A stretch of DNA of 64,000 nucleotides from an uncultured Myxococcales bacterium (GTDB taxonomy: Bacteria; Myxococcota_A; Polyangia; DRWM01; JAAZOP01). The stretch is taken from NCBI GenBank assembly GCA_964568275.1, contig CAZMRP010000001.1, forward strand, positions 8,382 to 72,381, read 5' to 3'. A program made the position numbers and the translations under genes. The stretch's first letter is position 1. Every line of letters starts with the position of its first letter. Under the pieces are notes generated by a model that was not told the DNA's origin, ran no database searches, and saw only the letters and a list, made by a program, of their open reading frames with translations. This document shows, one piece after another, positions 2,953 through 38,181 of this stretch.

Positions 2953-3116
2953 CGCGCTTCTCCCTCCTCTCGTATTTCGGAACACCCCGCCCCTTCGGCA
3001 TTCTCTACCATCCTATCGAGCTGTTGGCTAGATACAGGAAGGGCGCTCGGCTCCTGAGGGTTGCGAGACATGCTTCCTTGACGCTAACCTAGCCTGCGTC
3101 GTCGAAGGGAGGGGAG

Positions 3117-3710: not shown

Positions 3711-3808
3711 CACCGAACGGCGACGACGGGACCTCCCAAAGCTGCTACACGCCGGTCGCATCCAACGTTGCTCTCACGGCGCAGCTACCCGCGGGCTCGT
3801 GCGAATCG

Positions 3809-21864: not shown

Positions 21865-24800
21865 CGGCTGGCCCTCCGTTTGCTGGCCTTCTTCGCAGGC
21901 GCCGCGTTCGTCTTGGAATTCCTCGACTCGCTCGGCTCGACCTCAGGCGCCTCAACGCCCCTGCGCGTAGTTGCTGCGACAAATAGATCTTCAACCGAAG
22001 CGTTGAGTTCGCGCTCAAGAGCGGTACGATCCTCGTGCGACAAGCGTCCGTGGAGGCGCCGTGCAAGACTGGCGATCCGCTCGCTCAATTCGAGTCCTTG
22101 GTCAGGGAACACCATCGGCAATCTCCCCAATAGTGTGGGCTTTACCTGCGCCATGACGCGGCCTTCTTCCTGCGAGAAGACGCGGTAAACCCGCGCCATG
22201 AGGTCCGAATTCAATATGCCCGCCAGAAAGTACGGATCGATGTCGTGACGAGGGGCGAGCACGTAGACACCGTCCAGTGCGTAACGTTGCTCTTTGTCGA
22301 CTGCGACCTTCGGGCGGTCAGCGGTGATGACGCCCAAGAGCTTCGGGGTCCGCTCGAAAACGCGCCGCTCTCTCGCTCTGTGAAGCGCATGAAGCTCGTG
22401 TTTTCCGTCCTTCACTTCCTTGCAGGTGATCTTGTGCGCGTTACGCAGAACCCATTTCACGATATTTGGAACCGACTCGGGCTTGGTGCTCTTGTCCGTG
22501 TAGATGAGTAGAGGAAGACCTGCAGCTACTTCGAAGGGGCGCACATGAACGCCGCCTGTAACTACCGGACGGAGCACTTCTTCTTCAAGCCGCTCTTTCC
22601 GCGCTAACGATTCATCGACAACGAACACGTCCTTGTTGTCCGCACTCGCGCCGCGCTGGATCCCGAGGTCGTCGATAAGATTCGCAAGTTTACACTCTGC
22701 CTTCAGGACCAACGCGGCTACTTCCCGGTATTCGCCAACATCAGTCGTTGGAATGACGCATCCCGGGAAGGAGGCGACGGCAGCTGACGAAAGCGACTGT
22801 GTCTCATGGTGGCCTGTTGCCCACTTCTCGATGCTTAGCTCATATTCCGCCGATGGGTCGCGACACGCGGCGAAGACCACAAAGCAGCATGGCCGGACGA
22901 CCTTGAGAAACACGCCCTCGCCCAGGTCGCAGACGGTTACGAGGCGGTGGTGTCGAAGAAGATGCTCTCGGAGAGGCTGTGAATAGCCTTGGTAGAGAAG
23001 CACGTCGGGGACCACCAATCCGGAGAACCCATTGTGCGTGTGGTATCTTGAGGACCCCGAAACCATCAGGTGCCCGGCTCGCAAGATGAATAGATGGAAT
23101 GAATCAACAAGCCGCCCAAGCTTGTCGCCGTCGATCGTTTTCCAGAGCCGCTGCAACTCGTCGGCAAGACGTGCACCCCACGGCGGGTTGGACAACACGG
23201 CATCAAACCCCTGTCGTGCCATGCTGAACACTTCAGGAAACTCGAGCGGCCAGTGCAACGGGCGCAGGTGGTTGGAGACCGTCGCCAACGACCTGCGCTG
23301 GTTGTCACCGTTCACGAGCCGATCCGCACTAACGGCGAACCCCGCAAGTCGCGACTCCAGCACTCGATCGGTCTCCGCTGTCAGTACGGTCGATATGAAT
23401 TCATCGGCCAGTTCCTCCGAGACGCTGATCTTCTCGCGGGCAGCGGCATCGAGCGAGGCCATCGCCTCCACGTCGCGAATGTCACGGATAGGCATCTGGC
23501 GTAGCTGAAGGCGGATCGCCAACGCCTCCTCGACGGCCTGTCTGACGTTCCTCCCGAAGAGTCGTCCTTGCGTCTGCTGCTTCGGAGCCATCGACAGCTC
23601 CGTGAGTTGTTCGAGGCAGGTGATACCGAGCAGGCTGTCGCCACACCGCAGGTTGTGGTCGAGGAATCCGAAGGGGCGGCCCTTCGCGATCGTGACGAGC
23701 CAGAGAGAGAGCTTGGCGAGTTCGACGGCGAGCGGATTCAGGTCGACACCGTACAGGCAGCGCTCCGCGACGAGACGACGAGCCTGCTCAGCCCGCGCCT
23801 CCGCGGTGGCGGGGATCGGTTCCACGTCGGCACCTGCTCCGTGGACTCGGCCCTCGATATTGACCGCGTTGCCGGCGGCCTCGGCGATGCCCCACGCTTC
23901 GACCACCCTCGCGCTGAGACACCGGCACGCCTGGACCAGGAACGCTCCCGAGCCCATCGCCGGATCGCAGACCTTCAGGTCCAGGAGTTCCGCAGGCGAC
24001 TTCAGCGTCCAGGATTCCCTGGGCGCTCCCTTCGCCGGCCCATCGTAGACCAGGGGCGTCAGCGTCTCTTCGACGATCTTCTCGGTCAGGCTCTTCGGGG
24101 TGTAGTGCGTTCCGGTCTCTCGTCGGTCGATTCCCATCACGACGACGAAGGCGCCCTCGGGATGGACGAGCGGGTAGCCCCACGGATCCGTGCGCAGCAG
24201 CCACGCGTAGGGCTCGAGTCGATCTCGCAGCGCGACGTCTCCGCGGCACGCCGTCAGGAGCCGAGCGCCGAGTCGTGCGTCGACCTCGTGCTCAAGCGCA
24301 TTCCGGATGGAGGACTCGGAACGGCGAGTCCTCTCCACGAAGAGAGCGACGACCGCGTCGTCGCCGTCCAGTCGAGCCGACTCCAGCTCTCCGAGAGTCA
24401 CCCGCGGGTCTTTCGCCTGAGCGCCGCTCTCCAGCTCCAGGGTCACGTCGTCGACCCGTTTCACGGTCCTCTCCAGCAGACCCTCGTATACGTGGCCTAT
24501 CTGCTCGACATCGAGAGCGCGATACGAGAGCGTGCGCCCCTCGAAGGTCTGGATGGCGTCGAGGAGGAGGAGCACGGTCCGGTCGTCGATGGGCAGAGGA
24601 GCGGCCGGATGATGTCTCCAGCTCGATCCCTTGGACCGGCCCTCGAGGAACGGGAAGCGGTCGGGATCGAAGAGCGAGCCGCCCATCGCAGGGAGATGGA
24701 GGGTCGGGTGGTCGATGCCCCCGAAGACCGCGCGGAACACCGCCAGCAAACGCGACCACGCAGAGCGTCGCCGTTCGAGGATCTCCTCGCTCTCGACCCT

Positions 24801-25739
24801 CAGCTGCATTCGGAGCGTCGAGACCGCGTAGAACGAATCGTACCTCGGCTCGCCCAGCAGCAGGAGCCCGCGCTCCTCGGCCGCTAGGAGGAAGACGAGC
24901 CGCATCATGACCGTCAAGCCGGCCTCGTAGAGCTCCTGGGGCTTCACATCTCTGAGAAGCTCTCGATTGCGGTCCTGGTCGGCACGGTCGAGGGCCTGGA
25001 CCAGCACCTCGACTGCACGTCGAACGTGCTCGCCGAGGGCGTCTGTCACCTCGTCCTGGTGCTTCAGCGATCTCTCGAAGAGGCTCGGGAGACGGTCCTG
25101 CTCGGGTCCGAAGAGACGGCGCACGCCGAGCAGCGACGCGAACGCGCGGAGCGTCTCCGGCTCCTGACCCCACAGACGAGCGTACCAGCTCGCGAACGTG
25201 GACACCTGGCCCACCGGAGCATGGACGACCATCCAGCGTTCGCCGTTCGTCACGACGCCGAGCGGACAGCCCACCGCTCGCAGATGCATGGCCATGCGAT
25301 CGGCCGGCGAGCACGACAGTCCTCCGAATCGCATCGAAGCGACCAGATCGGTGTCGGGGGAGAAGACGTGCACCGGAACCAGGAGCGCATCCGAGCGAGC
25401 GGGGTCCACCAGAGCCCAGTCCGGCACGATCGCCGTATCGTGTTCGGGCAGATCCGCGCGAGCCGCGGAAGGAACGCGGTCGCCGCGCCGGAGCAGCTCG
25501 TCATCCGCCTCGAGCGCGGTGCGCAGGACCTCCTCGACCCAGGCCTCGTGGAGCCGTCCGAGGTCGCTGTCCTCCGAGTCCACGGCGTCCCGCCACTCTT
25601 CGTAGGCGCTGCGGAGCCGCCTGGCGCGGAGGGCATCCAGTTCCTCCAGTCCCTGCGGGAACGCTTCCCGGAGGACCGGGAGAGCCAGGAAGGGGCCCGA
25701 GACCTCGATGAGCTCCAGCCACTCGTGATTGCGGCTCAT
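21861..25739 (-). CDS. drmMI: large N6-adenine DNA methyltransferase, DISARM DrmMI-like
   Basis: Motif I DPAMGSGAFLV, motif IV VLSNPPWG; 1292 aa; 4-nt overlaps on both sides. Confidence 0.75.
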   Translation of the reverse strand: MSRNHEWLELIEVSGPFLALPVLREAFPQGLEELDALRARRLRSAYEEWRDAVDSEDSDLGRLHEAWVEEVLRTALEADDELLRRGDRVPSAARADLPEHDTAIVPDWALVDPARSDALLVPVHVFSPDTDLVASMRFGGLSCSPADRMAMHLRAVGCPLGVVTNGERWMVVHAPVGQVSTFASWYARLWGQEPETLRAFASLLGVRRLFGPEQDRLPSLFERSLKHQDEVTDALGEHVRRAVEVLVQALDRADQDRNRELLRDVKPQELYEAGLTVMMRLVFLLAAEERGLLLLGEPRYDSFYAVSTLRMQLRVESEEILERRRSAWSRLLAVFRAVFGGIDHPTLHLPAMGGSLFDPDRFPFLEGRSKGSSWRHHPAAPLPIDDRTVLLLLDAIQTFEGRTLSYRALDVEQIGHVYEGLLERTVKRVDDVTLELESGAQAKDPRVTLGELESARLDGDDAVVALFVERTRRSESSIRNALEHEVDARLGARLLTACRGDVALRDRLEPYAWLLRTDPWGYPLVHPEGAFVVVMGIDRRETGTHYTPKSLTEKIVEETLTPLVYDGPAKGAPRESWTLKSPAELLDLKVCDPAMGSGAFLVQACRCLSARVVEAWGIAEAAGNAVNIEGRVHGAGADVEPIPATAEARAEQARRLVAERCLYGVDLNPLAVELAKLSLWLVTIAKGRPFGFLDHNLRCGDSLLGITCLEQLTELSMAPKQQTQGRLFGRNVRQAVEEALAIRLQLRQMPIRDIRDVEAMASLDAAAREKISVSEELADEFISTVLTAETDRVLESRLAGFAVSADRLVNGDNQRRSLATVSNHLRPLHWPLEFPEVFSMARQGFDAVLSNPPWGARLADELQRLWKTIDGDKLGRLVDSFHLFILRAGHLMVSGSSRYHTHNGFSGLVVPDVLLYQGYSQPLREHLLRHHRLVTVCDLGEGVFLKVVRPCCFVVFAACRDPSAEYELSIEKWATGHHETQSLSSAAVASFPGCVIPTTDVGEYREVAALVLKAECKLANLIDDLGIQRGASADNKDVFVVDESLARKERLEEEVLRPVVTGGVHVRPFEVAAGLPLLIYTDKSTKPESVPNIVKWVLRNAHKITCKEVKDGKHELHALHRARERRVFERTPKLLGVITADRPKVAVDKEQRYALDGVYVLAPRHDIDPYFLAGILNSDLMARVYRVFSQEEGRVMAQVKPTLLGRLPMVFPDQGLELSERIASLARRLHGRLSHEDRTALERELNASVEDLFVAATTRRGVEAPEVEPSESRNSKTNAAPAKKASKRRASR

Positions 25740-28700
25740 CGCTTCTTCCCCTCGCTGAGCGACTCGGGCACGAGGAAGACCACGGCCACCGGGAAGGTGT
25801 GCTCCACGAGGTCCGTGTGGCGTTCTTCTATGGCCTTCCGTTCACGTTCCCGCTCGTCCGGTATCCGCGCGAGCCGCGCCTCGAGAGCCGCTCGGTCCCG
25901 CCGGAGCTGGGTCCGCTCGTCCTCGGAGAAGAGCGATAGCTGGCGGGGCTCCTCGTCCTTCTCCAGCTCGGACTCGAGGTTGGCGGCGAGGTCGTCGAGG
26001 AGCTGCATCATGTCCTCGATCTCGCGGCGCTTGCGGATCTCGATGGTGTTGCCGAGCGTGCGGAGCCTCTCTCTCGAGCGTGCCTCGACGGCACCCAGCA
26101 CCGCATCCGTGTGTTTCTCGAAGCGAGCCCTGAGCGCGTCGAAGAGCGACTGCGGCACCTGCCCGGGTCGCGAAGAAGCGAGCCACTCGCGCAGGCTCGT
26201 CACCCGGTCTTCTCGCTTGAAGCTCCCGTCGCGGAGATGGCCACCGGCCTCGGTCAGCTCTTCGTGGAGGCGGTGGTGGTTCCCGCCCGTGATCACCAGA
26301 CGCGAGAGCACGGCGACAGCAGGAGTCTCCAGCTTCGCGTCCGGCACCGTCCGGACGGTCGCGCGATTCAGCTTCTTCACGTCGTCGCGCGCCCAGACCT
26401 CGGCCCGGAGGAGCCGCAGGCTCATCTGGACCAGAGGGTGGTTGAGATGGACGAGAACGACGTCGTCGCGACCCTTGGCGACCTCGTGGTCGAATGTGAT
26501 CGGGCGAATCCGCTTCGTGTAAGGGTGCTCGAGTCCATCGAGACAGCGCGACCACGACCCGGCCAGCGGCGGGAGGTGGAACACCTTGGCTCCGGCGGCT
26601 CCTTCCAAGCCTGTCGGAACGAGGTCCGGCTTGTCCGTCAACCGCAACGCCGTCCTCACCGCTCGCGCGATACGGTCCGGCGTGAGATGCTGCTCGCTCC
26701 GAGTGGTCGTCAGTCGTTCGTGCAGCTTGGCGATCCGCTCGCGGAGATCGCGCTCGGCTCTGATGTACTTGCGAGCGCGCTCCATCCGCTTCTCGGCCAG
26801 GGCGGTGTCCAGCTCTCGCCGCCGGCCTTCGAGCAGAGCGGGAAGCTGCGGTGCGATCACGGGATTCACGCTTCCCATGTCGGCCCGCATCGCGTCGAGC
26901 TTCCTGAGTGCGCGGAGGATGTCGTCCCCGTGGTTGCCGCTTGCGTCGACCGGGTGCCAGATCACGACTTCTCTCTGCTTCTGGCCGTGGCGATCGATGC
27001 GCCCGTTGCGCTGCTCCATCACGTTCGGGTTGTAGGGGATCTCGATGTGAATCAGGAGATTGCAGTGGTTCTGGAGGTCGATGCCTTCCGATGCGGCATC
27101 CGTCGCGAGAAGGATGCGGACCGGAGAATCCTTCGGATCCGCCTGGAACGCCGCCTTGACGGCCTCCCGGTCCTTGGGGTCCATGCCTCCGAAGATCAGC
27201 GCGAGGCGCTCGCCTCCGAAGCCGTGGGTCGCGAGTATCTCGTGGAGCCAGGCCTGCGTCGTGCGGTACTCCGTGAAGAGGATGACGCGGCGGTCCGTCC
27301 AGCGACCGTCGGGGCGGATGTGTTCTCCGAGCCAGGCGATCAGCGCCCCAGCTTTGGAGTCCGGCTGCCGGGAAGCTCGTCGTGCCCAGGAACGCAGCGC
27401 CTCTGCCTGCCGGCGCTCGTCCGCGGACAGGCGTCTCAGTCGCCGACTCGCCTCCTCCACGGCGTCGCCCTCGGCGGATTCGCGGATCTCGTCGTCGGCG
27501 TAGTCCTCCTCGGTCTTCGCGATGGCGCGCCTGAGAATGCGGTCGTCGAGCCGTGACGAACGGCTCGTGCCGACCCGCTGACCTTCGATGGTGGCGATGT
27601 ATCGCTCGAAGGTCGATGCGAAGGCCGCGGGCGACGAGGCCAGTCTCTTGCGGAGCAATCGATGGATGAAATGCGAAGCGGCGCCTTCCTGCTCGTCCTG
27701 CTTCTCGCGGCTGGCGATGTACTCGACTAGCAGCCGACGCGCGTCTCGCTCGTCCTCGGTGTAGTCGACTTCGAGAGCCTCGAGCCGTCTTTCGGGATGG
27801 ATGCGATTGCCCTCGCCGTCGACCAGGTCGCCCTTGAGACGACGGACCATCACTCGTGCCAGTTGCTCCTCGGACGGAAGGACGTTGCGCGAGAATCGCT
27901 GGTCGTCCAGCAGCTCGAGCAACGCGGTGAAGGACTCCGTGTATCCGTCGTGCGGCGTCGCGGTCAGGAAGAGCTTGTGCTGGAAGTGGGGCGCCAGCAG
28001 GCGCACGAGTCGGGTGCGGAGGCTCTCCACCGCGTATCTGCCCACCGTCGGTGCGACGTTGTGCGCCTCGTCCACGATCAGCAGGTCGAAGCGCCTCGGG
28101 AAGCTCGGGTGCGAAGGAAGCGTGTCTCGCAGGAGCCGGATGCCCTCGCCTTGCTTGATCCAGTCGATCGATGCGATGAGCCTCGGAAATGAAGTCCACG
28201 GATTGGCGTGCACGCCGCGATCTCTGCGTAGTCTCTTGACATAGTCGGTGTCGACGATGAGGAAGTCGAGACCGAACTTCTCGATCATCTCGGTGCGCCA
28301 CTTCTCCTGCAGCGACGCCGGGCACAGGACGAGAATCGTGCGAGCCCGATGGCGGAGCAGCATCTCCTGGACTACGAGGCCGGCCTCGATGGTCTTGCCG
28401 AGGCCGACGTCGTCCGCGATCAGCAGGTTGGTCCGAGCCATGTCTATCGCACGGACCAGCGGATCGAGCTGATAGTCCTCGATGCTGACGCCGCTGCGAA
28501 ACGGTGCCTGGAGATAGCCGTGATCCGCATTGGTCGCAGCACCCCATCGGACGGCGTCGAGGAAGGCCTCGAGGTCCTCCGGCGGGTCGAGCGCAGCGAG
28601 GGTCGGAAGACCGGCGCGCTCGATGACATGCGCTCCAGGCTCGAGCTCCCAGAGGACCTCGAGTTCTTCGCCGAGCGCGTCTTCGTCTATGGATGCGAGC

Positions 28701-28819
28701 TTGACGAGACTGCGCTTCGGAAGCTCGGGGGCCGCCGCGGCGGCATCGACGTCCGAGACGATCCACTGTCGGCGTCTAACTTCGACGAGTTGGCCAGGTT
28801 CGGGTGCGGTACCGTTCAT
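25736..28819 (-). CDS. drmD: SNF2-family helicase, DISARM DrmD-like
   Basis: GLGKTIEAG, LLIVDEAHNV, LFLTATPHDG, helicase-C ...NGRIDRHGQ. Start taken at ATG 28819 (MNGTAPEPGQ), not the ORF-track 29065. Confidence 0.75.
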   Translation of the reverse strand: MNGTAPEPGQLVEVRRRQWIVSDVDAAAAAPELPKRSLVKLASIDEDALGEELEVLWELEPGAHVIERAGLPTLAALDPPEDLEAFLDAVRWGAATNADHGYLQAPFRSGVSIEDYQLDPLVRAIDMARTNLLIADDVGLGKTIEAGLVVQEMLLRHRARTILVLCPASLQEKWRTEMIEKFGLDFLIVDTDYVKRLRRDRGVHANPWTSFPRLIASIDWIKQGEGIRLLRDTLPSHPSFPRRFDLLIVDEAHNVAPTVGRYAVESLRTRLVRLLAPHFQHKLFLTATPHDGYTESFTALLELLDDQRFSRNVLPSEEQLARVMVRRLKGDLVDGEGNRIHPERRLEALEVDYTEDERDARRLLVEYIASREKQDEQEGAASHFIHRLLRKRLASSPAAFASTFERYIATIEGQRVGTSRSSRLDDRILRRAIAKTEEDYADDEIRESAEGDAVEEASRRLRRLSADERRQAEALRSWARRASRQPDSKAGALIAWLGEHIRPDGRWTDRRVILFTEYRTTQAWLHEILATHGFGGERLALIFGGMDPKDREAVKAAFQADPKDSPVRILLATDAASEGIDLQNHCNLLIHIEIPYNPNVMEQRNGRIDRHGQKQREVVIWHPVDASGNHGDDILRALRKLDAMRADMGSVNPVIAPQLPALLEGRRRELDTALAEKRMERARKYIRAERDLRERIAKLHERLTTTRSEQHLTPDRIARAVRTALRLTDKPDLVPTGLEGAAGAKVFHLPPLAGSWSRCLDGLEHPYTKRIRPITFDHEVAKGRDDVVLVHLNHPLVQMSLRLLRAEVWARDDVKKLNRATVRTVPDAKLETPAVAVLSRLVITGGNHHRLHEELTEAGGHLRDGSFKREDRVTSLREWLASSRPGQVPQSLFDALRARFEKHTDAVLGAVEARSRERLRTLGNTIEIRKRREIEDMMQLLDDLAANLESELEKDEEPRQLSLFSEDERTQLRRDRAALEARLARIPDERERERKAIEERHTDLVEHTFPVAVVFLVPESLSEGKKR

Positions 28820-29313
28820 CGTCGCCGTCCGTTCTCGCCGGTGTCCGGCGCCAGTCTCCTGCAGGCGCGAGCGATACGTTCCACGATTCGGCGGTTCACT
28901 GGCCGACAGTCGTGCTCCCAGACACGGATTACCGTCCAGCCGGCTCCTTTCAGGCGCGCGGTCTGGCGACGATCGCGTTCCCTGTTCTCCTCCAGCTTGG
29001 GCAGCCAGTAGGAGGTGTTCGTCTTCGGGTATGTCGCATGCGCAGGGCAGCAGTGCCAGAAACATCCATCGACGAGGACTGCGACCTTGGCGCCCGGGAA
29101 CACGATATCGACGGCGATCTTCTCGATGCGGCGGTGCAGGCGAAACCTGAGGCCCTCAGCATGCAAGGCCGAACGAAGCGCGACCTCCGCGCCCGTGTTC
29201 TTCTGCATGACCCGCTTCATGATCTCGGAGCGAGTGAGCGGATCGCGAACCCGTCGAGCAGGCGTCCTTCCGCGTCTCTGCGCTCCGTCTCCACTCTCGG
29301 CGCGTCGAGTCAT
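28816..29313 (-). CDS. vsr: very-short-patch-repair endonuclease
   Basis: VDIVFPGAKVAVLVDGCFWHCC...WTVIRVWEHD; stop overlaps drmD start (ATGA). Confidence 0.8.
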   Translation of the reverse strand: MTRRAESGDGAQRRGRTPARRVRDPLTRSEIMKRVMQKNTGAEVALRSALHAEGLRFRLHRRIEKIAVDIVFPGAKVAVLVDGCFWHCCPAHATYPKTNTSYWLPKLEENRERDRRQTARLKGAGWTVIRVWEHDCRPVNRRIVERIARACRRLAPDTGENGRRR

Positions 29314-29414
29314 GTGCCGGTCTCCGACGACGATTCAGGGTGGAGATCGGGCCCCCTTTGCGGGACTATGCTCGGGAATCGGCTCTTGAATGCCCTCATG
29401 TGCCCCCCCCCAGT

Positions 29415-30494
29415 TCACCCGTGTCGAGAGACGTGCTTCAGGAGAACCTGCCCGAGCGCCTTGGCGAGTTTGGGCGGCACAGCGTTTCCGATCATGCGGC
29501 CGACGGCCTTGCGGTTGAGCCTCTGCTCTCGAGGCCAGAACTCGTAGGTACGCGGGAAGCTCTGGAACAGGGCCGCTTCCCGTAGCGTGATGGCGCGGTC
29601 TTGCTCTGGATGACCGAAGCGCCCGTTGCCGATGCCGGTGCAGAGCGTCGTCATCGTCGGCGACGGTTGCTCCCACCACATCCTCGCGTAGATCGAGCCG
29701 TAGGACCGGCCAGATTCCTTGCGGTGGCAGTCGAGCACGAGGTCGTCGGGCCAGTCTCGACGGGTACCGCCGTCAAGCCGGGTGGCGCGAATTCGCTTGA
29801 GGTTCATCGGCGAGAGGAGCGCAGCCACGTGCAGAGGGTCGTTCGGGTCCTCCTCGCCCGAGGCGAGCGGTGGCAGGTCACCGATCGTCTCTCGCACCGT
29901 CTTCCATTGGCTGGGACACCGATATCGACCCTCGGGGACAGCGATGGGACCGAGGCGCGACGCGAGCAGCACCAGCCTCTGGCGGGCCTGCGGGATACCG
30001 TACTCGACACAGCGGACGAGCTTCCAATCGGTGAAGTAGCCCTGTCGTTCGAGCGTCCGCACGAACCGGTCGAACACCTCGCGTCCGCGGTCTGCGAGCT
30101 CTGGGACGTTCTCCATCGTCACCAGCTCCGGGAGGATGCCCACCACGAAGCGGCCGAAGTTGTCGAGGAGGTCCCACGCCTCGTGTTCGCGTATGCCGTT
30201 CGTCAATCGCGAGAACGGCTGACACGGCGCGCATCCCGCGAGGAGTTTGATCTTGCCGTTGTCGTAGAGCTTCTCGATGCTGGGGTAGTTCTTCCGTGAC
30301 ACGTCCCAGCAGAGAAAGGCAGAACCAGGGTTGTTCTTCACGAAGGCATGCTTGGCCTGCTTGTCGATGTCGATGCCCGCATTGACCTTGATCCCCGCCT
30401 GCAGGAGGCCATGCGTCAGGCCGCCTGCACCGCAGAAGAGGTCCACAGCGCAAATCGGACTGGAAGCGAGCGTCGAGACGGTTCGAGAGGTCAT
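29415..30494 (-). CDS. dcm: DNA cytosine-5 methyltransferase
   Basis: Motif I VDLFCGAGGLTHGL, motif IV PCQPFS, ENV motif; start ATG 30494 (MTSRTVSTL). The 180-aa Arg-rich N-extension in the ORF track is rejected. Confidence 0.85.
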   Translation of the reverse strand: MTSRTVSTLASSPICAVDLFCGAGGLTHGLLQAGIKVNAGIDIDKQAKHAFVKNNPGSAFLCWDVSRKNYPSIEKLYDNGKIKLLAGCAPCQPFSRLTNGIREHEAWDLLDNFGRFVVGILPELVTMENVPELADRGREVFDRFVRTLERQGYFTDWKLVRCVEYGIPQARQRLVLLASRLGPIAVPEGRYRCPSQWKTVRETIGDLPPLASGEEDPNDPLHVAALLSPMNLKRIRATRLDGGTRRDWPDDLVLDCHRKESGRSYGSIYARMWWEQPSPTMTTLCTGIGNGRFGHPEQDRAITLREAALFQSFPRTYEFWPREQRLNRKAVGRMIGNAVPPKLAKALGQVLLKHVSRHG

Positions 30495-30924
30495 CGCACG
30501 ACCTGCCGCTCGGGGCGCAGTCGCCCGCCCGCCTGGCGTCGGTGCGAGGCGCGGAGTAGAAGTGCCCTTCGCCTCCTTCTCGTCCGTCGGGTGATCATTC
30601 TTCTTCCCGCCGCGTCGCCGGATGCTCCCGCGCCATGCACAAGACCCTGGGGTGGGGGGCCTCTGCTTCGCTCCTCGCGGGCCCGCCACGGCCGCACGGC
30701 ACATCACGGCGATGCCAAGCGCCGACACGCTGCACGCTACCACGAGCCGAACCGGGTCCTCAACAGCCGGCCGACGCCGGGCGACACGGTACCTCGCTTC
30801 GCGATGAACGAAGGCGGGGTTCTCCCAAGCACCCGTGACCCGGCTCCGGGTCGACAACGGCCGAAGCCCGTGCCGTCGGTGGCCCGAGCAGCGCAGCAGA
30901 ATTCCCAGCGGGCGCTGGCTGCCT

Positions 30925-31914
30925 CTACGAATTGGCGGCACGGAAGATGCGCTCTCGGTGGTAGCGCAGGTAGCGGTCGGCCGGGGCGACGCCACCGGCG
31001 GGCAGCAAGAGCGACGGCCCGATCGCATCGCCACCGAAGTAGCGACGGTATTGCGCGTCGCGTTCGACGTTCTCCTCGAGAGCGGCTGCGCGGCGGATCC
31101 GCAGTCCGCCGTTCACCGCGAGCAGGCCGGCGTCGAAGGCGGCGTCGTGGATCGGGCACGCCGCAATCCCGTTCCTGCGGTCGAGCCTCTCGCGGTCGCT
31201 CGACTCCGCCCACGGCTTGATGTGGGAGGCGATCAGGAGCCGATGGCCTTGGAGATCCCTCGGCCCGAAGCCACAGAACCCGCATCGGTGGTCGTAGTTC
31301 GCCAGGACATCCCTCGCGAAACGGTGCTGCCCAAGTCGAACTTGTTGCTCCACGAGGCGGCAGGTCTCCTCCTCGCGGAAGTCGAACGTGCGGGACATCT
31401 CGTCCATCCTCTCGCGCCGCTCCTGCAGTGCGAGGCGCAGTTCGCGCTCGCCCAGCTCGTCTTGGCCGAGCATCGGAACGTCTCCGGCATCGATGACACC
31501 GAGGAAGTCCGGCACGCCACTCGCGTCGAATCCGGCGTCCCTCGCAGCGAGCACGATGGTCCGGTAGAGGGCATGGAAACGCGTTGGCTGAGCAGCGAGA
31601 TGCAGGAAGAGCTCGGGCTCGGCGCGGGCCGCGTGGGGAAGTGCTCCCTCCAGGTTCAGCATCTTGTGCGTCAGGGAGTTCGGTGGCCGCCGCAGCGTCG
31701 CGGCGAGAACACGCACGGACGGTGGCAGCCGATGCACATTGCTGCCGCCGAACCCATGCGGATCCACTACGAAGAACAGGCCGTAGCAGAGCAGCGTCTC
31801 CACCGGAAGGAACGGCTCCTGGCGGCTCCGGGCCACGCGACCGCGGATCCTCTGCCATTGCTGTCGTGCCGCGTCGGGCGTCAAATCCAAGTACACGGAA
31901 ATCGACGGCGCCAT
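30925..31914 (-). CDS. HNH_2-type endonuclease (candidate restriction enzyme)
   Basis: RLGQHRFARDVLANYDHRCGFCGF...LIASHIKPW...NGIAACPIHDAAFDAG; start at ATG 31914 (MAPSISVY). Confidence 0.5.
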   Translation of the reverse strand: MAPSISVYLDLTPDAARQQWQRIRGRVARSRQEPFLPVETLLCYGLFFVVDPHGFGGSNVHRLPPSVRVLAATLRRPPNSLTHKMLNLEGALPHAARAEPELFLHLAAQPTRFHALYRTIVLAARDAGFDASGVPDFLGVIDAGDVPMLGQDELGERELRLALQERRERMDEMSRTFDFREEETCRLVEQQVRLGQHRFARDVLANYDHRCGFCGFGPRDLQGHRLLIASHIKPWAESSDRERLDRRNGIAACPIHDAAFDAGLLAVNGGLRIRRAAALEENVERDAQYRRYFGGDAIGPSLLLPAGGVAPADRYLRYHRERIFRAANS

Positions 31915-32050: not shown

Positions 32051-32512
32051 CTACTCCGACTCCCTCTCGCCCGGCGACCGTCTTGCCAAACGCTTCCGAG
32101 TCCGTCCCCGGTACGCCTCGCCCGGGTTGCCCTGCCGAGCCTCCGCGATCGCCGCCAGTTCGTCCAGATCGACCAGACGCTCGATCGCACGCTTCGGCTT
32201 CCTGGCTCCCTGCGCGTCGGCCGGGGCCTCCGGCGTCCGGGAGGGGGACGACTCGGCATCCTCACCAGTCGGAGCAGTCGCGACCCACTGGTCACGCAGC
32301 ATCTTCCGCTGCGCGCGAGGCGAGAGGACCTGCCCGCGCTGCACGACGTGCTGTTCGTTGAGCCATGCGCGAATCTCGCCGGGATCGAACCGCAGAACGC
32401 CGCCGACCTTCAGCGCCGGCAGCTTGCCGGCGGTCGCCAAGGCGTACACGGTTGAGCGCCCGACGCGAAGGAGTGCCGCGATCTCGGACACGGTCATCAA
32501 CGGCTCCATCAT
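32051..32512 (-). CDS. AlpA/excisionase-type HTH protein with Pro/Ala-rich tail
   Basis: MTVSEIAALLRVGRSTVYALATAGKLPALKVGGVLRF. Confidence 0.45.
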   Translation of the reverse strand: MMEPLMTVSEIAALLRVGRSTVYALATAGKLPALKVGGVLRFDPGEIRAWLNEQHVVQRGQVLSPRAQRKMLRDQWVATAPTGEDAESSPSRTPEAPADAQGARKPKRAIERLVDLDELAAIAEARQGNPGEAYRGRTRKRLARRSPGERESE

Positions 32513-32815
32513 CCTCGTTCCTCCGAACGCCGGCGCTTCCGGCTCCCGTGCCGCGGACGCCGTCACCGGCGGATACCGCCCAAGGTCGGCCAGAACCAAG
32601 TCCGCCAGGGCCTCTACGAATCGGCGGTAGCTCGCCTCCTGTTGGGCACGTTCCTCAGCCGTTCTGGGCTCCGGCGCAAACTCCAACACGACGATGTCGC
32701 CGCTCGATCCGACGGTCGTCACCCGTTCTCCGGCCGCCGTGTCCGCCATCCTGTCCACCTCTCTCTTGACGATCGCGGCGGAACCGGCGACCGTCCCTCC
32801 ACCGGCTCCCCGTCC

Positions 32816-33027: not shown

Positions 33028-33175
33028 TCGCTGCGCTCCGTCCCCGGAGCAGATGCCGAGGATACAGGCATGCGTACCGGCTGATCCAGGGGAGATCCCC
33101 TGTTGGCGTTCGCCGCTGCGACGCGGTCGCATCCGCGGTTGCACGCGACGTCGGGCTGCGGTCCACTCCCGGGCG

Positions 33176-33508
33176 ATGGGCGAGAAACTGCTGAAGGCAA
33201 CTGCGGTCGCGGAGCTGCTCGGCGTCTCCCGGAGCACGGCGTACCGGCTGATGAAGGACATGCGGCACGTCGTGCTCGGCGGCAACATGCTCCGGGTATC
33301 CGAGACCGCCCTGCAGGACTACATCAACCGGAGGACCGTGCACCCGGAGGCCTGTGTTCCCGGGAAACCGCGAAGCCGGAGGCTGCCGAAACCGCCCGAG
33401 GCGGCGGCGCCCGATCGACGACCGGACTCGGCCCTGCCACGCAGGGTCGTGAGGATCGTCTTCCCGCGCACGCGACCGCGACAGGCCGCCGCGCAGGAGC
33501 GGGACTGA
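33176..33508 (+). CDS. AlpA/excisionase-type HTH protein
   Basis: MGEKLLKATAVAELLGVSRSTAYRLMKDMRHVVLGGNMLRV. Confidence 0.45.
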   Translation: MGEKLLKATAVAELLGVSRSTAYRLMKDMRHVVLGGNMLRVSETALQDYINRRTVHPEACVPGKPRSRRLPKPPEAAAPDRRPDSALPRRVVRIVFPRTRPRQAAAQERD

Positions 33509-33572: not shown

Positions 33573-34376
33573 TCAGGTCGGAACGACGATGCCGCCCTGG
33601 TTCGCCGTACCGATCATCTCGACTCGCCCCTGCGGCACGAGCGCCGAGAGGTACGCGCAGAAGAACGCGTCGAGTCGGTCCTTCTTCTTCTTGCACGCTC
33701 TGCCAACCGATCCCTCGGGATCGAGTTCGCCGAGCAGCTCTCGAGGCAGGAGCACCCGTGGCGCATCAAGCCGACGGACGAAGTCGAGGTATCGTCGGAA
33801 CTCGCGTCGGGCGGCCGGCCAGCCCTGCCGCTTCTTCTTGTATCTCAGCGTCCGCGTGAGGCCGAAGAGCACGACCTGGGCCGGGTGAGGGTAGCACTCG
33901 AAGACGGACTTGCCAGCCACCGCGGGAAGCGACATGGTGCTGGGCGCGTCCGGGAAACCGAGGCCCTCCAACCGGCGGGCCAGCACCTCCCCTCGCGGAA
34001 TGCCGCAGTTGTACCGCCCCATGTTGGTGCGGTTCGCAGGATAGGCACCGGCCTCGAAACGACCGAAGCAGCGGTGCGTCTCGCGGTCGCATTCCCGCAT
34101 GCCCTTGGCGTTTGGAACCACCAGCGGCGCGTCGACCATGACGTTCGTCAGGTCGGCGAGGTACTCGGCGACGAACGCCACGACATCGTCGCTGGAGACC
34201 CGCGTTTCGGGGGCGACGACGCGAAGCCCTCCCGGGTCGTCGGACGCAGATCGGTCAGCGGAAGGCGAGAACGAGGCCGACCGCGCTGTCTGATGACGAG
34301 TACCGACCGAGTCAACCGGTCGTGACATCTCGTACAGCTGTGTAATCATGAAACAAACAGTCGCACATGCAAACAT
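33573..34376 (-). CDS. DUF429-like (RNase-H-fold) protein
   Basis: ECYPHPAQV...; weak recollection of the family motif. Confidence 0.35.
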   Translation of the reverse strand: MFACATVCFMITQLYEMSRPVDSVGTRHQTARSASFSPSADRSASDDPGGLRVVAPETRVSSDDVVAFVAEYLADLTNVMVDAPLVVPNAKGMRECDRETHRCFGRFEAGAYPANRTNMGRYNCGIPRGEVLARRLEGLGFPDAPSTMSLPAVAGKSVFECYPHPAQVVLFGLTRTLRYKKKRQGWPAARREFRRYLDFVRRLDAPRVLLPRELLGELDPEGSVGRACKKKKDRLDAFFCAYLSALVPQGRVEMIGTANQGGIVVPT

Positions 34377-34455
34377 TCAATCCACATCTTGACAGATGCG
34401 GTCCGCGTGGCTAACCTGATTGGTGGCTGGTCGAGACCAGCCACGGAGGTGAAAG

Positions 34456-34908
34456 ATGCCGAACGCGAGGGTCCACAAGGTGAGCGGCGGCGTGGCCGGC
34501 GCTGGCTACGCTTTGATCCGGGCGAAGGGACAGTCCGGGGGGCACGTCATCATCGAGACGTTTGGCGGCGCGGTAGGAGGCACTCTCGGAGGTTTGGCGC
34601 CCGACCGACTCGACCCGCCGCTCTGGCCCGGGCACCGAAGCGTCGGCCACGGCCTCGTGCCAGTGGCGGTCGCGGGGGATGCGGTGCGGCGGCGGGTGGA
34701 CGGATGGCAGCAGTCGCTTCGCGCGGAAGCCGAACGGCACGCGCAGACTGCTGCCGCTGCCACGGAGCCTCTCGACCGCCTCCTGCACGGCTTCCTGGAA
34801 CTTCTGTTTCGCTTCCTGGCGGGGCTCGCCGCGGGGTTCGCGGCGGGCTACATCTCCCACGTCGCGCTCGATGCATTCAGCCCGGCGGGCCTGCCGCTGT
34901 TGGCGTAG
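34456..34908 (+). CDS. DUF457/YdjM-like membrane-bound metal-dependent hydrolase
   Basis: Gly/Ala-rich membrane segments with HVALDAFSP at the C-terminus. Confidence 0.35.
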   Translation: MPNARVHKVSGGVAGAGYALIRAKGQSGGHVIIETFGGAVGGTLGGLAPDRLDPPLWPGHRSVGHGLVPVAVAGDAVRRRVDGWQQSLRAEAERHAQTAAAATEPLDRLLHGFLELLFRFLAGLAAGFAAGYISHVALDAFSPAGLPLLA

Positions 34909-34919
34909 GGAGGGCATTC

Positions 34920-36188
34920 ATGGCGGTGACGCAGGAAGAGCTCGGCCGGCGCCTGCGGGAAGCGCGCGAGGCGTGCGGGATGACGCAGGACGATGTCGCG
35001 AAGCACCTCGGCGTGTCCCGTCCGACCGTCACCCAGCTGGAGAACGGCAAGCGCCCGGTGTCGACGCTGGAGCTTGACCGGCTTGCTCGGCTCTTCGGCC
35101 GCGACCTCCGCGAGTTCGTCGGCGAGGAGTTCAGCGCCGAGAAGACCCTGGCCGCGCTGTTCCGGGGGCACGTGGAGGCCACCCAGGAGAGCGCAGTCCA
35201 GGAACGCCTACGGAACACGATCTGGCTCGCCCGCGAGCTAACGAACCTGGAGGAAGTCCTCTCGGTCGACCGGTCGTCGGCCAGCGCGCCCAGCTACCGC
35301 GTCCCGACCCCGAGCACGAAGTGGGATGCCGTCGTGCAGGGGTCGCGCGCGTCGGAGGAGGAGCGACGGCGACTCGGCCTGGGGGCGCTCCCGCTTGCGG
35401 GGATGACCGACCTGCTGGAATCCCAAGGCGTCCACGCGTTCCTCGTCGAGCTCCCCGACGACATCTCGGGCGTGACAATGAACGATCCCCGGATGGGGCT
35501 GATCGTGATCGCCAACACCTGGGATTCGGCGCTCCGTTGCCGCTTCTCGCTGGCCCACGAGTACGCGCATCTCCTCTTCGACCGGGAGCGGTTCGGGATC
35601 CTGAGCAGGACCAGCGACCGCGACGACCTCGCCGAGGTCCGGGCGAACTCCTTCGCGGCTGCGTTCCTCATGCCCGAGGAGGGCGTCCGCGCGTTTCTGG
35701 CCGGGCTCGGGAAGGGCCGGCCCAGCCGCGCCTCCGCGCAGGTGTTCGACGAGCACGGCGCCCTTCCCGCAGAAGGCCGAACGGCACCCGGCTCGCAGGA
35801 CGTGCAACTGGTGGATGTGGTGCGTCTGGCGCACAACTTCGGTGTCAGCCGTCTCGCCGCGCTCTACCGGCTGCTGAACCTCAAGCTGGTCACGCGGCCC
35901 GAGTTCGATGCCCTGAAGACCGAGGAGGAGCAGAAGGGCGCGCAGGCGGCCAAGCTGCTTGGAATCGACAAGCCGACCCACGACGACATCCAGGCCCAGC
36001 TCCGTCAGCGGGTCCTGAATCTCGGCCTGGAGGCGCTTCGGCGACAGCTCATCACCAGGGCCAAGCTCCTCGAGTTGGCGGACGCGATGTCCTTCTCAGG
36101 GAGTTCTGCCGCCGAGTTGGCGCGCTGGGTCGTCGGTAACGAGGGGGACCGCGACGGCGACGTGTTGCTCCCCGAAGGAGAAGCGTGA
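34920..36188 (+). CDS. XRE-family HTH fused to ImmA/IrrE (COG2856) zinc metallopeptidase
   Basis: LREAREACGMTQDDVAKHLGVSRPTVTQLENGKR (HTH) and SLAHEYAHLLFD (HExxH). Confidence 0.7.
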   Translation: MAVTQEELGRRLREAREACGMTQDDVAKHLGVSRPTVTQLENGKRPVSTLELDRLARLFGRDLREFVGEEFSAEKTLAALFRGHVEATQESAVQERLRNTIWLARELTNLEEVLSVDRSSASAPSYRVPTPSTKWDAVVQGSRASEEERRRLGLGALPLAGMTDLLESQGVHAFLVELPDDISGVTMNDPRMGLIVIANTWDSALRCRFSLAHEYAHLLFDRERFGILSRTSDRDDLAEVRANSFAAAFLMPEEGVRAFLAGLGKGRPSRASAQVFDEHGALPAEGRTAPGSQDVQLVDVVRLAHNFGVSRLAALYRLLNLKLVTRPEFDALKTEEEQKGAQAAKLLGIDKPTHDDIQAQLRQRVLNLGLEALRRQLITRAKLLELADAMSFSGSSAAELARWVVGNEGDRDGDVLLPEGEA

Positions 36189-36745
36189 CAGCACCCGCTG
36201 CTCCGGCCCGCGTCGTCGTGACCGACGCGAACGTGCTGATCAACTTGCTCCACGCAGGCATGGTTGACCTGCTCGGTCGACTGCCCGGCTACGAGTTTGT
36301 CGCGCCTGACCATGTGATCGAGGAGGTGACGGATCCCGCGCAGCGCCCGATGCTCGACGATGCCATCGTGCGCGACATCATCAAGAGGGAGTCGATCACG
36401 GACATCACCGGCATCGAGTTGTATGCGGAACTCCGCAGCCGGATGGGCAGCGGGGAGGCGGCTTGCATCGCGCTGGCGTCCACCAAGCGATGGATCGTCG
36501 CCTCGGACGAGAAGGGCGCGTTTCGCCGCGAAGCCGTGCGCCTTCTTGGGCCGGGCTCCGTGATCACGACGGCCGGCCTCTTCGTGCTCGCGATCCGTGC
36601 CGGACTCCTGAACGTCGCGCAGGCTGACGAGGCGAAGTCACTGCTCGAGCAGCACCGTTTCCGGATGACGTTCCGGTCGTTCCGAGAACTGGCCGATGTC
36701 GCGCGGCCGGGCAAGCCGCAGCCGGTCGGCCGCAGGAAGAGGTGA
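36185..36745 (+). CDS. PIN-like domain protein
   Basis: VVVTDANVLINLLH...D...; 4-nt overlap with the upstream gene. Confidence 0.5.
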   Translation: MTAPAAPARVVVTDANVLINLLHAGMVDLLGRLPGYEFVAPDHVIEEVTDPAQRPMLDDAIVRDIIKRESITDITGIELYAELRSRMGSGEAACIALASTKRWIVASDEKGAFRREAVRLLGPGSVITTAGLFVLAIRAGLLNVAQADEAKSLLEQHRFRMTFRSFRELADVARPGKPQPVGRRKR

Positions 36746-36750
36746 GAAGC

Positions 36751-36984
36751 ATGTCGAAACGAAGAACGTATCACGTGACCCGGTCCAGCGAGGGCGCTTG
36801 GCGGGTGAAGGCCGCCGGGGGCGAGAAGGCGTCCGCCGTCTGCGACACGAAGGCTGAGGCCGTTGATCGGGCGAAGGAACTGGCCAAGAACCAGGCCCTC
36901 GGCCAGGTCGTGGTGCATGGCCGCGACAACGAGATCCAGGCCGAGTACACCTACGGCAAGGACCCGTGTCCGCCGAAGGGGTAG
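36751..36984 (+). CDS. DUF2188 family small protein
   Basis: RRTYHVTRSSEGAWRVKAAGGEKASAVCDTKAEAVDRAKELAKNQ...VVHGRDNEIQAEYTYGKDP. Confidence 0.55.
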   Translation: MSKRRTYHVTRSSEGAWRVKAAGGEKASAVCDTKAEAVDRAKELAKNQALGQVVVHGRDNEIQAEYTYGKDPCPPKG

Positions 36985-37013
36985 AGCCCGCGCGGGCGGG
37001 AGGGAGTCGGCCA

Positions 37014-37309
37014 TGGCGAGGAAGCGCAAGACGTGCTCGTGCCTGTACAAGCTGAAGAAGGGGCGGAAGGTCCAGCGCATCGGGAAGGGACCGTGCTTCG
37101 ATCGGCCCGGGGCGGCCGAGCGGTACCTGGAGCAGAGGTACGGCAAGAAGAAGTGGTGGGATGGGTACGACACCGGGCCGTGCTACTCCGACGAAGAGAA
37201 GGCATATGAAGCGGAGCGCAAGGCAATCGATCGCTACCGGCGATCGCACGGCGGTCGTCTCCCTCCCCACAACGCGGTCGGCGGCGGCGGAGGTGCACGT
37301 TCGAACTGA
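37014..37309 (+). CDS. small basic hypothetical protein
   Basis: Internal ATG of ORF 36863..37309. Confidence 0.3.
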
Positions 37310-37392
37310 GGCTTCCAGCGATCGGAAGCACGCTCCGGCGACGATGGGCAACGCGGCACCGAGAAGGCGGAGCCCAACCGCGAGGAGGCACC

Positions 37393-38181
37393 GTGAGCGA
37401 CAAGAGCAAGATCGAGTGGACGGATGCTACGTGGAACCCCGTGCGCGGGTGCAGGAAGATCGGTCCGGGCTGCCTCCACTGCTACGCTGAGACGTTCGCC
37501 GAGCGGTTCCGCGGGGTGCCGGGCCACCCGTACGAGCAGGGATTCGACCTGCGCCTGGTCCCGCACAAGCTCGAGGAGCCGCTGCGCTGGCGTCGGCCGA
37601 GGATGGTGTTCGTCAACTCGATGAGCGACCTATTCCAGAACGGCGTGGATGACGCGTACATCGGACAGGTGTTCGAAGTAATGCGGCGCGCCGACTGGCA
37701 CACCTACCAGGTGTTGACGAAGCGCGCCGACCGTCTTCGCGACGTCCTCTCGCGCCCGGAATACTCGTGGGTCCTGGCGTCTCGGCACATCTGGATCGGC
37801 GTCAGCGTGGAGGACCAGAGGCACGGGATTCCGCGCGTCGCTCGGCTTCGCGAGACACCGGCCGCCGTTCGCTTCCTATCCCTCGAGCCTCTGCTCGAGG
37901 ATCCCGGGGATGTGGATCTCCGAGACATCCACTGGGTCATCGTGGGGGGCGAGAGCGGCCCCGGGGCACGGCCGATGCAGAAGGACTGGGTCATCTCCGT
38001 GCGCCGGCAATGCCGTGCTGCCGGCGTTCCCTTCTTCTTCAAGCAGTGGGGCGGTATCAACAAGGCCAAGGCGGGCCGACTGCTGCAGGGCCGCACGTAT
38101 GACGAGTACCCCGCCTTCCCCCACCTCGGAGCGGGCACGTGCAGTCGGCGCGGTTCGCCGCGACGCCAGGCTTCGCGGTGA
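37393..38181 (+). CDS. phage Gp37/Gp68 (DUF5131) family three-Cys-motif protein
   Basis: SKIEWTDATWNPVRGCRKIGPGCLHCYAE is a C-x5-C-x2-C motif. Confidence 0.6.
   Translation: MSDKSKIEWTDATWNPVRGCRKIGPGCLHCYAETFAERFRGVPGHPYEQGFDLRLVPHKLEEPLRWRRPRMVFVNSMSDLFQNGVDDAYIGQVFEVMRRADWHTYQVLTKRADRLRDVLSRPEYSWVLASRHIWIGVSVEDQRHGIPRVARLRETPAAVRFLSLEPLLEDPGDVDLRDIHWVIVGGESGPGARPMQKDWVISVRRQCRAAGVPFFFKQWGGINKAKAGRLLQGRTYDEYPAFPHLGAGTCSRRGSPRRQASR

Follow-up and report, generated by a model that had tools for sequence, protein, structure and literature searches.

The DISARM locus and its two methyltransferases

[quoted passage not shown] Genes for an HNH_2 nuclease, a C5 cytosine methylase (Dcm), and a very-short-patch repair endonuclease (Vsr) are found here upstream of the DISARM helicase gene drmD. 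The G+C content of the window (around 67%) makes lists of open reading frames (ORFs) noisy, and a single minus-strand array was picked out by third-position GC together with domain searches. For the gene calls ahead of drmD, the minus strand was read from 32100 to 28700, and scans were performed with Pfam, PADLOC, and NCBIfam. The array contains the following features:

32051–32758, minus strand: HTH_17 (excisionase-type) DNA-binding gene, the first gene upstream of the HNH gene (Pfam HTH_17 E = 8e-15 / 2.5e-15)
30925–31914, minus strand: HNH_2 nuclease of 329 amino acids (Pfam HNH_2 E = 1.2e-8)
30495–30924: noncoding spacer of 430 bp from the HNH gene to dcm
29415–30494, minus strand: dcm, C5 cytosine methylase of 359 amino acids, equated with DrmMII (PF00145 E = 6.9e-49)
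28816–29313, minus strand: vsr, very-short-patch repair T:G mismatch endonuclease of 165 amino acids (TIGR00632, Pfam Vsr)
28816–28819, minus strand: ATGA shared by the stop of vsr (TGA) and the start of drmD (ATG)
25736–28819, minus strand: drmD, SNF2-like helicase (NCBIfam NF038317 1365 bits vs. cutoff 610; PADLOC DrmD)
21861–25739, minus strand: drmMI, N6-adenine methyltransferase of type IIG/MmeI-like organization (Pfam Eco57I/N6_Mtase/TaqI_C; PADLOC DrmMI 1285 bits)
20443–21864, minus strand: GHKL-type ATPase (HATPase_c_3), between drmMI and drmA (Pfam E = 2.9e-9)
19445–20440, minus strand: PF20553 ("putative O-methyltransferase") gene (Pfam E = 1.3e-46, C-terminal 260 amino acids)
15454–19428, minus strand: drmA helicase (PADLOC DrmA 1507 bits; Pfam Helicase_C)
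13619–15457, minus strand: drmB (DUF1998/MZB; Pfam MZB; PADLOC DrmB E = 3.5e-77)
12858–13619, minus strand: drmC, PLD nuclease (Pfam PLDc_2; PADLOC DrmC E = 3.6e-102)

The initial annotation had described four elements on this strand, namely the HNH gene, dcm, vsr, and the overlap with drmD, all of which were found at their places, and it had seen both a C5 and an N6 methylase, which agrees with the PF00145 domain of Dcm and the Eco57I/N6_Mtase domains of DrmMI. The core triplet drmA/drmB/drmC with drmD and drmMI ahead of it identifies the system as class 1 DISARM, and by Pfam, PADLOC, and NCBIfam the component set of this class is complete and intact (with the start of drmC set by alignment to the DrmC of Microvirga and by reading of the junction). 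Neighboring genes share ATGA overlaps at the vsr/drmD, drmD/drmMI, drmMI/GHKL, and drmA/drmB junctions and a TGATG overlap at drmB/drmC. The minus strand from 33 to 12.8 kb of the window is likely to form one long defense operon running from the HTH_17 gene through drmC. A promoter scan of 28.7–33.2 kb revealed no promoter-like sites, and terminator-like sites appeared there only at the level of shuffled sequence.

The translation of dcm shows the motifs DLFCGAGG, PCQ, ENV, QxRxR, and GNAVPP, and among the PADLOC models DrmMII (E = 1.8e-78) was tied with the generic MTase_II (8.9e-79). A PF00145 domain with intact catalytic motifs, encoded and conserved in a DISARM locus, is what characterizes DrmMII, and this is what we find for Dcm. 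The vsr gene follows 101 bp downstream on the same strand. Its product scores 129.9 bits with TIGR00632 (cutoff 97.85). The alignment with E. coli Vsr (1CW0) extends over the entire length of that protein and retains the motifs for catalysis and intercalation (D, GCFWH, W, and ERDRR), so that both the sequence and the genetic pairing with a C5 methylase are those of the Vsr subfamily and the protein is the bona fide family member that had been proposed. The dcm–vsr spacer is not conserved with that of L006 or L007 (two related loci introduced below), and four bases past the dcm stop it holds a minus-strand run of nine Gs (29403–29411) as a possible slippage-prone tract.

At the junction of vsr and drmD (CGACGATGAACGG), the vsr stop and the drmD start share the four nucleotides ATGA. 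The NF038317 alignment begins at residue 6 of the drmD ORF that starts with ATG at 28819, and together with the junction sequence this therefore places the overlap at 28819–28816, as the initial annotation had it. The same in-frame ATGA overlap is seen in 8 of 13 related loci with vsr ahead of drmD and also in L006, and the other junctions among these 13 are overlaps of 8–29 nucleotides or gaps of 8–21 nucleotides. Because of this recurrence, the overlap is not a product of chance, and the coupling of vsr to drmD (with the linked expression that had been predicted from it) appears to be an ancestral feature of the operon. In the literature that could be searched, we came across no account that counts an independent vsr gene among the components of DISARM.

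Dcm and Vsr in a clade of class 1 DISARM loci

For a systematic view of this arrangement, DrmD representatives were collected (31 of them aligned) and one genome per GTDB species was scanned, which resulted in 80 DISARM loci with 10-kb flanks that were searched by tblastn with the proteins of the window. Upstream genes were counted at the 70 DrmD loci with at least 1.3 kb of upstream sequence, and loci with a DrmD at least 55% identical to that of the window were treated as one clade. Dcm is encoded directly upstream of drmD on the same strand in 21 of the 23 clade loci, compared to only 2 of the 47 more distant ones (Fisher p = 1.5e-13), and this difference supports the proposal that Dcm–Vsr does not stand beside DISARM by chance. 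Vsr lies between Dcm and drmD in 13 of these 21 Dcm-bearing loci. Across all 80 loci, Vsr was never found without a Dcm match, while Dcm occurs without Vsr in 8 loci of the clade. The nearest relatives of the window's DrmD are from Alphaproteobacteria.

Within the protein collection, the homologues most similar to Dcm (84–89% identical) are encoded on contigs L006 and L007, where the gene order is HTH_17, Dcm, Vsr, SNF2 helicase, MmeI-like methylase, HATPase_c_3, and PF20553, and a Botrimarina homologue with 72% identity is found in the order HTH_17, Dcm, SNF2. At the DNA level (blastn), the window is around 80% identical to L006/L007 from 30461, just inside dcm, to approximately 19.3 kb, and upstream of this boundary no DNA match to these contigs was found. 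The target recognition domain (TRD) of the window's Dcm is 92% identical to that of L006 and 53–59% identical to those of other Dcms of the DISARM clade.

The same architecture is present on Microvirga terrae plasmid pR24_2 (NZ_CP102847.1), for which RefSeq lists an HTH gene, a DNA cytosine methyltransferase, a very short patch repair endonuclease, and drmD, followed by MmeI, an ATP-binding protein, an O-methyltransferase, drmA, DUF1998, and drmC, an order identical to that of the window minus the HNH gene. The plasmid proteins are 50–77% identical to those of the window, with Dcm at 49% overall and 53% in the TRD. The plasmid differs in that it has no HNH gene, that its HTH gene lies 20 bp from dcm, and that its PF20553 gene is intact.

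Based on the conserved synteny in the 80-locus survey, in L006/L007, and on the Microvirga plasmid, we are confident that Dcm–Vsr is an integral part of this DISARM clade and not a neighboring restriction–modification (RM) cassette, and this conserved head probably marks a clade of class 1 DISARM with two self-marking methylases. A further class 1 DISARM locus with a DrmD that is 58% identical lies on plasmid p96k of Deinococcus sp. AJ005 (L093, 26160–27048), and there vsr and a C5 methylase gene are found on opposite strands just downstream of drmC, on the far side from drmD. The association of Dcm–Vsr with class 1 DISARM is therefore not tied to a single position.

Two methylase types in one DISARM locus, which the initial annotation had implied to be new, have already been published: A class 1 DISARM with an additional drmMII was characterized in Serratia sp. 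SCBI, where DrmMI produces N6-methyladenine (m6A) at ACACAG and DrmMII produces 5-methylcytosine (m5C) at MTCGAK (bioRxiv 10.1101/2021.12.28.474362, Aparicio-Maldonado et al.), and a DISARM operon is elsewhere described as typically having "DrmMI and/or DrmMII" (Bravo et al., PMC9142583). The window shares with Serratia the genes drmD, drmMI, drmA, drmB, and drmC plus a C5 methylase gene drmMII in one locus and, with them, two marks (m6A and m5C), which for the window are predicted. It differs in that the accessible text of the Serratia study describes six genes with no mention of Vsr, whereas the window has Vsr between drmMII and drmD and further adds a GHKL ATPase and a PF20553 gene between drmMI and drmA, as well as HNH_2.

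Alternatively, Vsr could serve DISARM as an effector nuclease, coupled to DrmD, and not as an enzyme for the repair of deaminated m5C. In ARMADA and some Druantia systems, YprA-family helicases carry fused Vsr-type nuclease domains that are predicted to be active, and the tight ATGA coupling of vsr is to drmD, with dcm 101 bp away. Yet the protein exceeds the curated cutoff of the Vsr subfamily and matches E. coli Vsr from end to end, its gene is never seen without Dcm across the 80 loci while Dcm does without Vsr in 8 clade loci, and on Deinococcus plasmid p96k the vsr–dcm pair stays together away from drmD, so that we regard an effector role as highly improbable. The pairing of Dcm and Vsr is moreover the classical one: As in E. 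coli dcm–vsr, the gene behind the C5 methylase gene, on the same strand, encodes a Vsr of the same family, with the same logic of T:G repair. In E. coli, vsr overlaps dcm, whereas vsr of the window lies past dcm and overlaps drmD instead.

The HNH_2 nuclease upstream of dcm

At the related loci, the small HTH_17 gene abuts dcm directly, whereas in the window the HTH_17 gene is followed by the HNH gene and then by the 430-bp spacer; the same arrangement is present on one Logan contig. No HNH homologue was detected by tblastn at any of the 80 DISARM loci, and none is present in L006–L008 or on the Microvirga plasmid. Because it is absent from all of these, including the closest relatives, the HNH gene is specific to this locus, and the single "Dcm–Vsr–HNH" module of the initial annotation falls apart, given that Dcm–Vsr with drmD always comes without HNH in the clade loci, L006–L008, and the Microvirga plasmid.

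The HTH_17 gene itself encodes its HTH at residues 87–136 of a 235-amino-acid ORF (32512 could be the start of a shorter form), with third-codon-position GC in favor of minus-strand coding, and its product is 28–39% identical to those of the small HTH_17 genes that immediately precede dcm on the Microvirga plasmid and in L006, L007, L013, and L014. It is one of three clustered HTH_17-type genes (minus strand, 32758–32051; minus strand, approximately 33010–32816; plus strand, approximately 33100–33508). In other genomes, homologues of the HNH gene are not preceded by an HTH_17 gene. In the 430-bp spacer, neither a sigma-70-like promoter nor a coding-strand terminator was detected, and its six frames hold stops or no HTH remnants; neither a remnant HTH_17 gene nor an HNH fragment was found in the spacer or upstream. 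An 18-nucleotide direct repeat (30921–30938 and 32610–32627; 17/18 identical, 1689 bp apart) that brackets the HTH and HNH genes was considered as a scar of HTH–HNH insertion and is probably due to chance, because homology does not extend beyond the 18 nucleotides and one copy, the second, falls within the long form of the HTH ORF.

The start of the HNH gene is backed by full-length homologues, of which more than 1000 (cluster representatives of around 326 amino acids, 50–60% identical) are found in Actinomycetota, Chloroflexota, Planctomycetota, Myxococcota, and other phyla, with strong conservation of both halves of the protein. An AlphaFold2 model (predicted local distance difference test score of 91) shows an all-helical N-terminal domain (approximately residues 1–206) and a C-terminal CCCH-zinc HNH domain with residues C211, C214, H231, N248, C253, and H256. 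The only significant matches among solved structures, by sequence or fold, are confined to the HNH domain and comprise VcaM4I (6yex; hmmsearch E = 1.5e-14, Foldseek E = 1e-4) and TagI (6ghs; E = 0.03, probability 1.0), both of which are modification-dependent restriction enzymes (MDREs). The NCBIfam model PT-DNA_restrict for phosphorothioate-dependent HNH enzymes matches weakly at 53 bits, below its cutoff of 180. For the N-terminal domain, we found no Pfam match at E values up to 10, and the best Foldseek hits had E = 1.8 in the PDB and E = 0.93 in BFVD. No modification-reader domain (PUA/SRA/EVE, winged helix, or SBD) was recognized in the protein. The N-terminal domain was also considered as a modular sensor that might occur in other architectures, and 152 of 152 hits had the same two-domain layout of around 326 amino acids. 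Close full-length homologues were absent from IMG/VR, and a phage origin of the family was dismissed on these grounds.

Around 13 independent genomic contexts of close HNH homologues were sampled, several of them from a scan of metagenomes with the family alignment. The first six (L002, L004, L005, L089, L090, and a Euzebya plasmid) contain no methylase gene, and L091 is likewise methylase-free. The idea of an always solitary HNH gene (6/6 contexts) was overturned by the metagenome scan, which uncovered homologues linked to Dcm or Vsr. In L094 (HNH 51% identical), the HNH gene is followed after 330 bp by the start of Dcm in the same order as in the window, in L095 (50%) a convergent Vsr gene is nearby, in L097 (44%) the HNH gene precedes an HhH-GPD glycosylase and a C5 methylase, and in L100 (40%) the order is Vsr, Dcm, an insertion sequence element, and HNH. 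The glycosylase and methylase domains of L097 lie in one long ORF (2667–4454; HhH-GPD first), as a fused gene or two genes, and the HhH-GPD domain is a possible alternative partner for T:G repair in place of Vsr. Two methylase-free settings recur, one being a fixed chromosomal slot in which HNH lies between meaB and convergent darG-darT-uvrD (L005 and L254–L258; three protein clusters), the other a co-directional array of HD_assoc_2, MBL-fold/NUDIX, and three Pfam-less proteins with HNH_2 as the last gene (L089 and L259–L261). The latter array, in which the HNH homologues are 57–58% identical (L089, 1989–7996; L259, 984–6996), could represent an uncharacterized multi-gene system.

Altogether, 8 independent contexts lack a methylase gene compared to 5 (including the window) with Dcm and/or a T:G-repair gene within around 3 kb. 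The HNH gene is therefore found next to such genes far above chance, yet a Type II restriction endonuclease would be paired with its methylase in every case, and the observed frequency falls far short of this. For comparison, fewer than 6% of modification-dependent PUA-HNH enzymes have a DNA methylase gene within 3 kb, and the HNH family is well above this value.

One way to read these data is that HNH, Dcm, and Vsr form a Type II RM cassette, transcriptionally fused to DISARM, in which HNH is m5C-sensitive and cuts the unmethylated target of Dcm. The HNH-then-Dcm order of L094 and L097, Dcm or Vsr within 3 kb of HNH in L095 and L100, the co-directional genes with no terminator detected, and the second-best PADLOC model for the HNH protein (labeled Type II restriction enzyme, E = 1.2e-14) all point in this direction. 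We nevertheless consider such a cassette unlikely. In more than 25 loci, including those with the 84–89% identical Dcms, Dcm and Vsr accompany DISARM without HNH, and most close HNH homologues have no methylase gene within 6–8 kb, which a classical restriction endonuclease could not tolerate. Co-inheritance as expected of a Type II pair is thus missing on both sides, with the Dcm lineage lacking HNH in these loci and HNH lacking a methylase in the 8 contexts above. The determinants of the nuclease also do not co-vary with methylase specificity: The TRDs of Dcms encoded beside HNH homologues (window, L097, L100, and L112) are only 9–34% identical (9–23% among those beside close homologues, i.e., window, L097, and L100), while the HNH proteins beside these unrelated Dcms keep 24–28 of 28 invariant residues of the N-terminal domain just like solitary ones. 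This suggests that the HNH family recognizes something generic (a modification, a DNA state, or a partner) and not a site matched to the methylase. On this sequence evidence, the HNH protein is probably not the sequence-matched cognate restriction endonuclease of Dcm that the initial annotation had suggested, and its nearest HNH domains are those of modification-dependent enzymes.

A distant HNH subfamily provides a comparison of its own. In CglI/NgoFVII-type RM cassettes of metagenome contigs L110–L112, L117, and L119, Dcm and Vsr are accompanied by a full-length HNH_2 relative (25–30% identical to the window's protein) whose gene is tightly coupled to vsr. L112 already contains a restriction endonuclease of CglI/NgoFVII type as a candidate partner of Dcm, which likewise argues against HNH in this role. 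On the same contig, a class 2 DISARM is found with its drmE-drmA directly downstream of the HNH_2 relative and Vsr. We rejected this as a sign of a recurrent link between HNH and DISARM, given that the 7-kb HNH block ends at Vsr and has other neighbors in L110, L111, and L119.

The adjacency in L112 could also be taken to suggest that HNH is an accessory effector nuclease of this DISARM, acting downstream of DrmAB/DrmD and, for example, supplying cleavage that the dispensable DrmC does not. The HNH gene sits inside the operon-like array, between the HTH gene and drmMII, and two studies report that DrmC is dispensable for DISARM activity (10.1101/2021.12.28.474362; PMC9142583). Such a role is very unlikely in view of the absence of HNH from 80/80 class 1 DISARM loci and the closest relatives, the lack of conservation of the L112 adjacency in L110, L111, and L119, and the frequent occurrence of the HNH family where no DISARM is present.

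Most likely, the HNH gene is thus a separate, locus-specific acquisition between the HTH gene and drmMII that encodes an independent stand-alone nuclease. The nuclease domain is homologous to the HNH domains of characterized MDREs, and this HNH_2-type catalytic domain is shared with VcaM4I (EVE-HNH, 6YEX) and TagI (SRA-HNH, 6GHS). In most of the sampled contexts (8 of 13), the family is, like MDREs, encoded without a methylase nearby. In contrast to VcaM4I and TagI, the N-terminal domain of the window's protein is all-helical and not of a PUA/SRA/EVE fold, and genes for C5 methylases or T:G repair do accompany the family in around one third of the independent contexts. Since the N-terminal domain is unmatched and occurs in no other combination, a Type IV reading draws solely on the relationship of the nuclease domain and on the mostly methylase-free contexts, and we would rather lean against a modification-dependent activity while seeing it as a possibility. 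A new kind of stand-alone defense nuclease is a tentative idea with odds clearly below even: The family would then act through a novel sensor of modification or DNA state, or be held in check by m5C, and its conserved all-helical N-terminal domain would, just as tentatively, represent a fold not seen in solved structures that is fused to an MDRE-type HNH domain.

Accessory genes, proposed mechanism, and implications

Between drmMI and drmA, the window encodes a GHKL ATPase, which shares 76% identity with the protein annotated as "ATP-binding protein" in the Microvirga DISARM locus, and a PF20553 protein. Both genes are present on the Microvirga plasmid and in L006, L007, L013, L014, L026, and L028 and are absent from L009–L012 and Deinococcus plasmid p96k. 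No PADLOC or NCBIfam model covers the pair, and our literature search found no link to DISARM. Judging from this distribution, the pair seems to be an optional insert. The PF20553 gene contains an in-frame TAG at codon 71 (20228–20230), where Microvirga has CAG and L006 has a Glu codon. Its translation aligns over the full length and straight through this stop with the Microvirga orthologue (76% identical), and a GTG follows immediately after the TAG. The interruption could reflect a nonsense mutation or an error of sequencing, or translation may re-initiate here.

A different kind of variation affects drmMI. In nearly all relatives, tblastn with DrmMI covers only around 66% of the protein, and DNA homology to L006, L007, L013, and L009 ends at approximately 23.3–23.4 kb. 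This partial homology, with the C-terminal third at 21861–23050 of the window, indicates that the TRD end of DrmMI has been swapped between otherwise similar loci.

The surroundings of the operon are of a mobile-element type, with one further feature directly beyond drmC:

11486–12643, plus strand: tyrosine recombinase/integrase (Pfam Phage_integrase E = 2.5e-19)

Upstream of the operon, the region 33573–38181 encodes a DUF429 protein, an Xre-HTH/Peptidase_M78 protein, and a DUF5131 protein. No tRNA genes were found in the window. These flanks suggest that the DISARM operon is part of an integrative island, and among its relatives L006 and the Microvirga locus likewise adjoin recombinases or sit on a plasmid.

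The explanation that we favor, with a probability of roughly 0.7, is that Dcm–Vsr belongs to the DISARM system and that the HNH nuclease was acquired separately and complements it. By analogy with the Serratia homologues, DrmMI would lay m6A and DrmMII m5C on host DNA, and these marks would damp the activation of the DrmAB helicase and restrain DrmAB/DrmD on self DNA so that unmethylated incoming DNA is targeted. In line with this, m5C-containing DNA is reported by Bravo et al. to reduce the ATPase rate of DrmAB (PMC9142583). The overlapping genes would be read from one mRNA with termination–reinitiation at the ATGA/TGATG junctions, as their overlaps suggest.

It is well known that m5C deaminates to T and that Vsr repairs the resulting T:G mismatches. 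At DrmMII sites, Vsr would nick 5' of the mismatched T to start very-short-patch repair and may in this way offset the mutational cost of carrying DrmMII, a role suggested by its family membership and its co-occurrence only with Dcm. The HNH protein would act in parallel as a separately acquired nuclease, maybe in a Type IV-like manner on modified DNA that escapes DISARM. This resembles the situation of BrxU beside the bacteriophage exclusion (BREX) system on the pEFER island, where a methylation-based system is likewise combined with a stand-alone nuclease that could cover modified phages (PMC8565348). BrxU, however, is of the GmrSD family with demonstrated activity, whereas the HNH protein of the window is from another family and known from its sequence.

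Several observations weigh against this explanation. Vsr-type domains are predicted effectors in the DISARM relatives ARMADA and Druantia, so that a non-repair role of Vsr is possible, and the N-terminal domain of the HNH protein resembles no known modification reader. The HNH gene and dcm are co-directional with no terminator detected between them, the HNH family is enriched beside C5 methylase or T:G-repair genes (5 of 13 contexts), and in the distant HNH subfamily the gene is closely coupled to vsr within a cassette that also encodes Dcm, all of which makes a functional tie of HNH to m5C modules possible. Finally, the nonsense codon of the PF20553 gene may mean that the locus is not fully functional.

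The locus is largely ordinary, since public genomes already contain this architecture without HNH, with correct annotation, and both methylase types in one DISARM are published. The new points are modest: Vsr as a recurrent coupled accessory of DISARM, the GHKL/PF20553 pair as an optional insert, and the HNH family as an uncharacterized one. For annotation, the two genes ahead of drmD, for a C5 methylase and Vsr, are best assigned to DISARM itself across the whole clade (as DrmMII and its repair helper) and not to a separate RM system. Programs that detect defense systems could list Vsr, along with the optional GHKL/PF20553 pair, among the accessory genes of this clade. The fixed place of Vsr in the operon suggests that m5C as a self-mark carries a mutational cost high enough for selection to act against it. 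The HNH nuclease is the only unexplained part. If it were the new kind of stand-alone defense nuclease tentatively considered above, its position ahead of DISARM would provide a second, independent layer of restriction. Should its family indeed turn out to form such a class of restriction nucleases, this would moderately interest the fields of restriction enzymes and phage defense.

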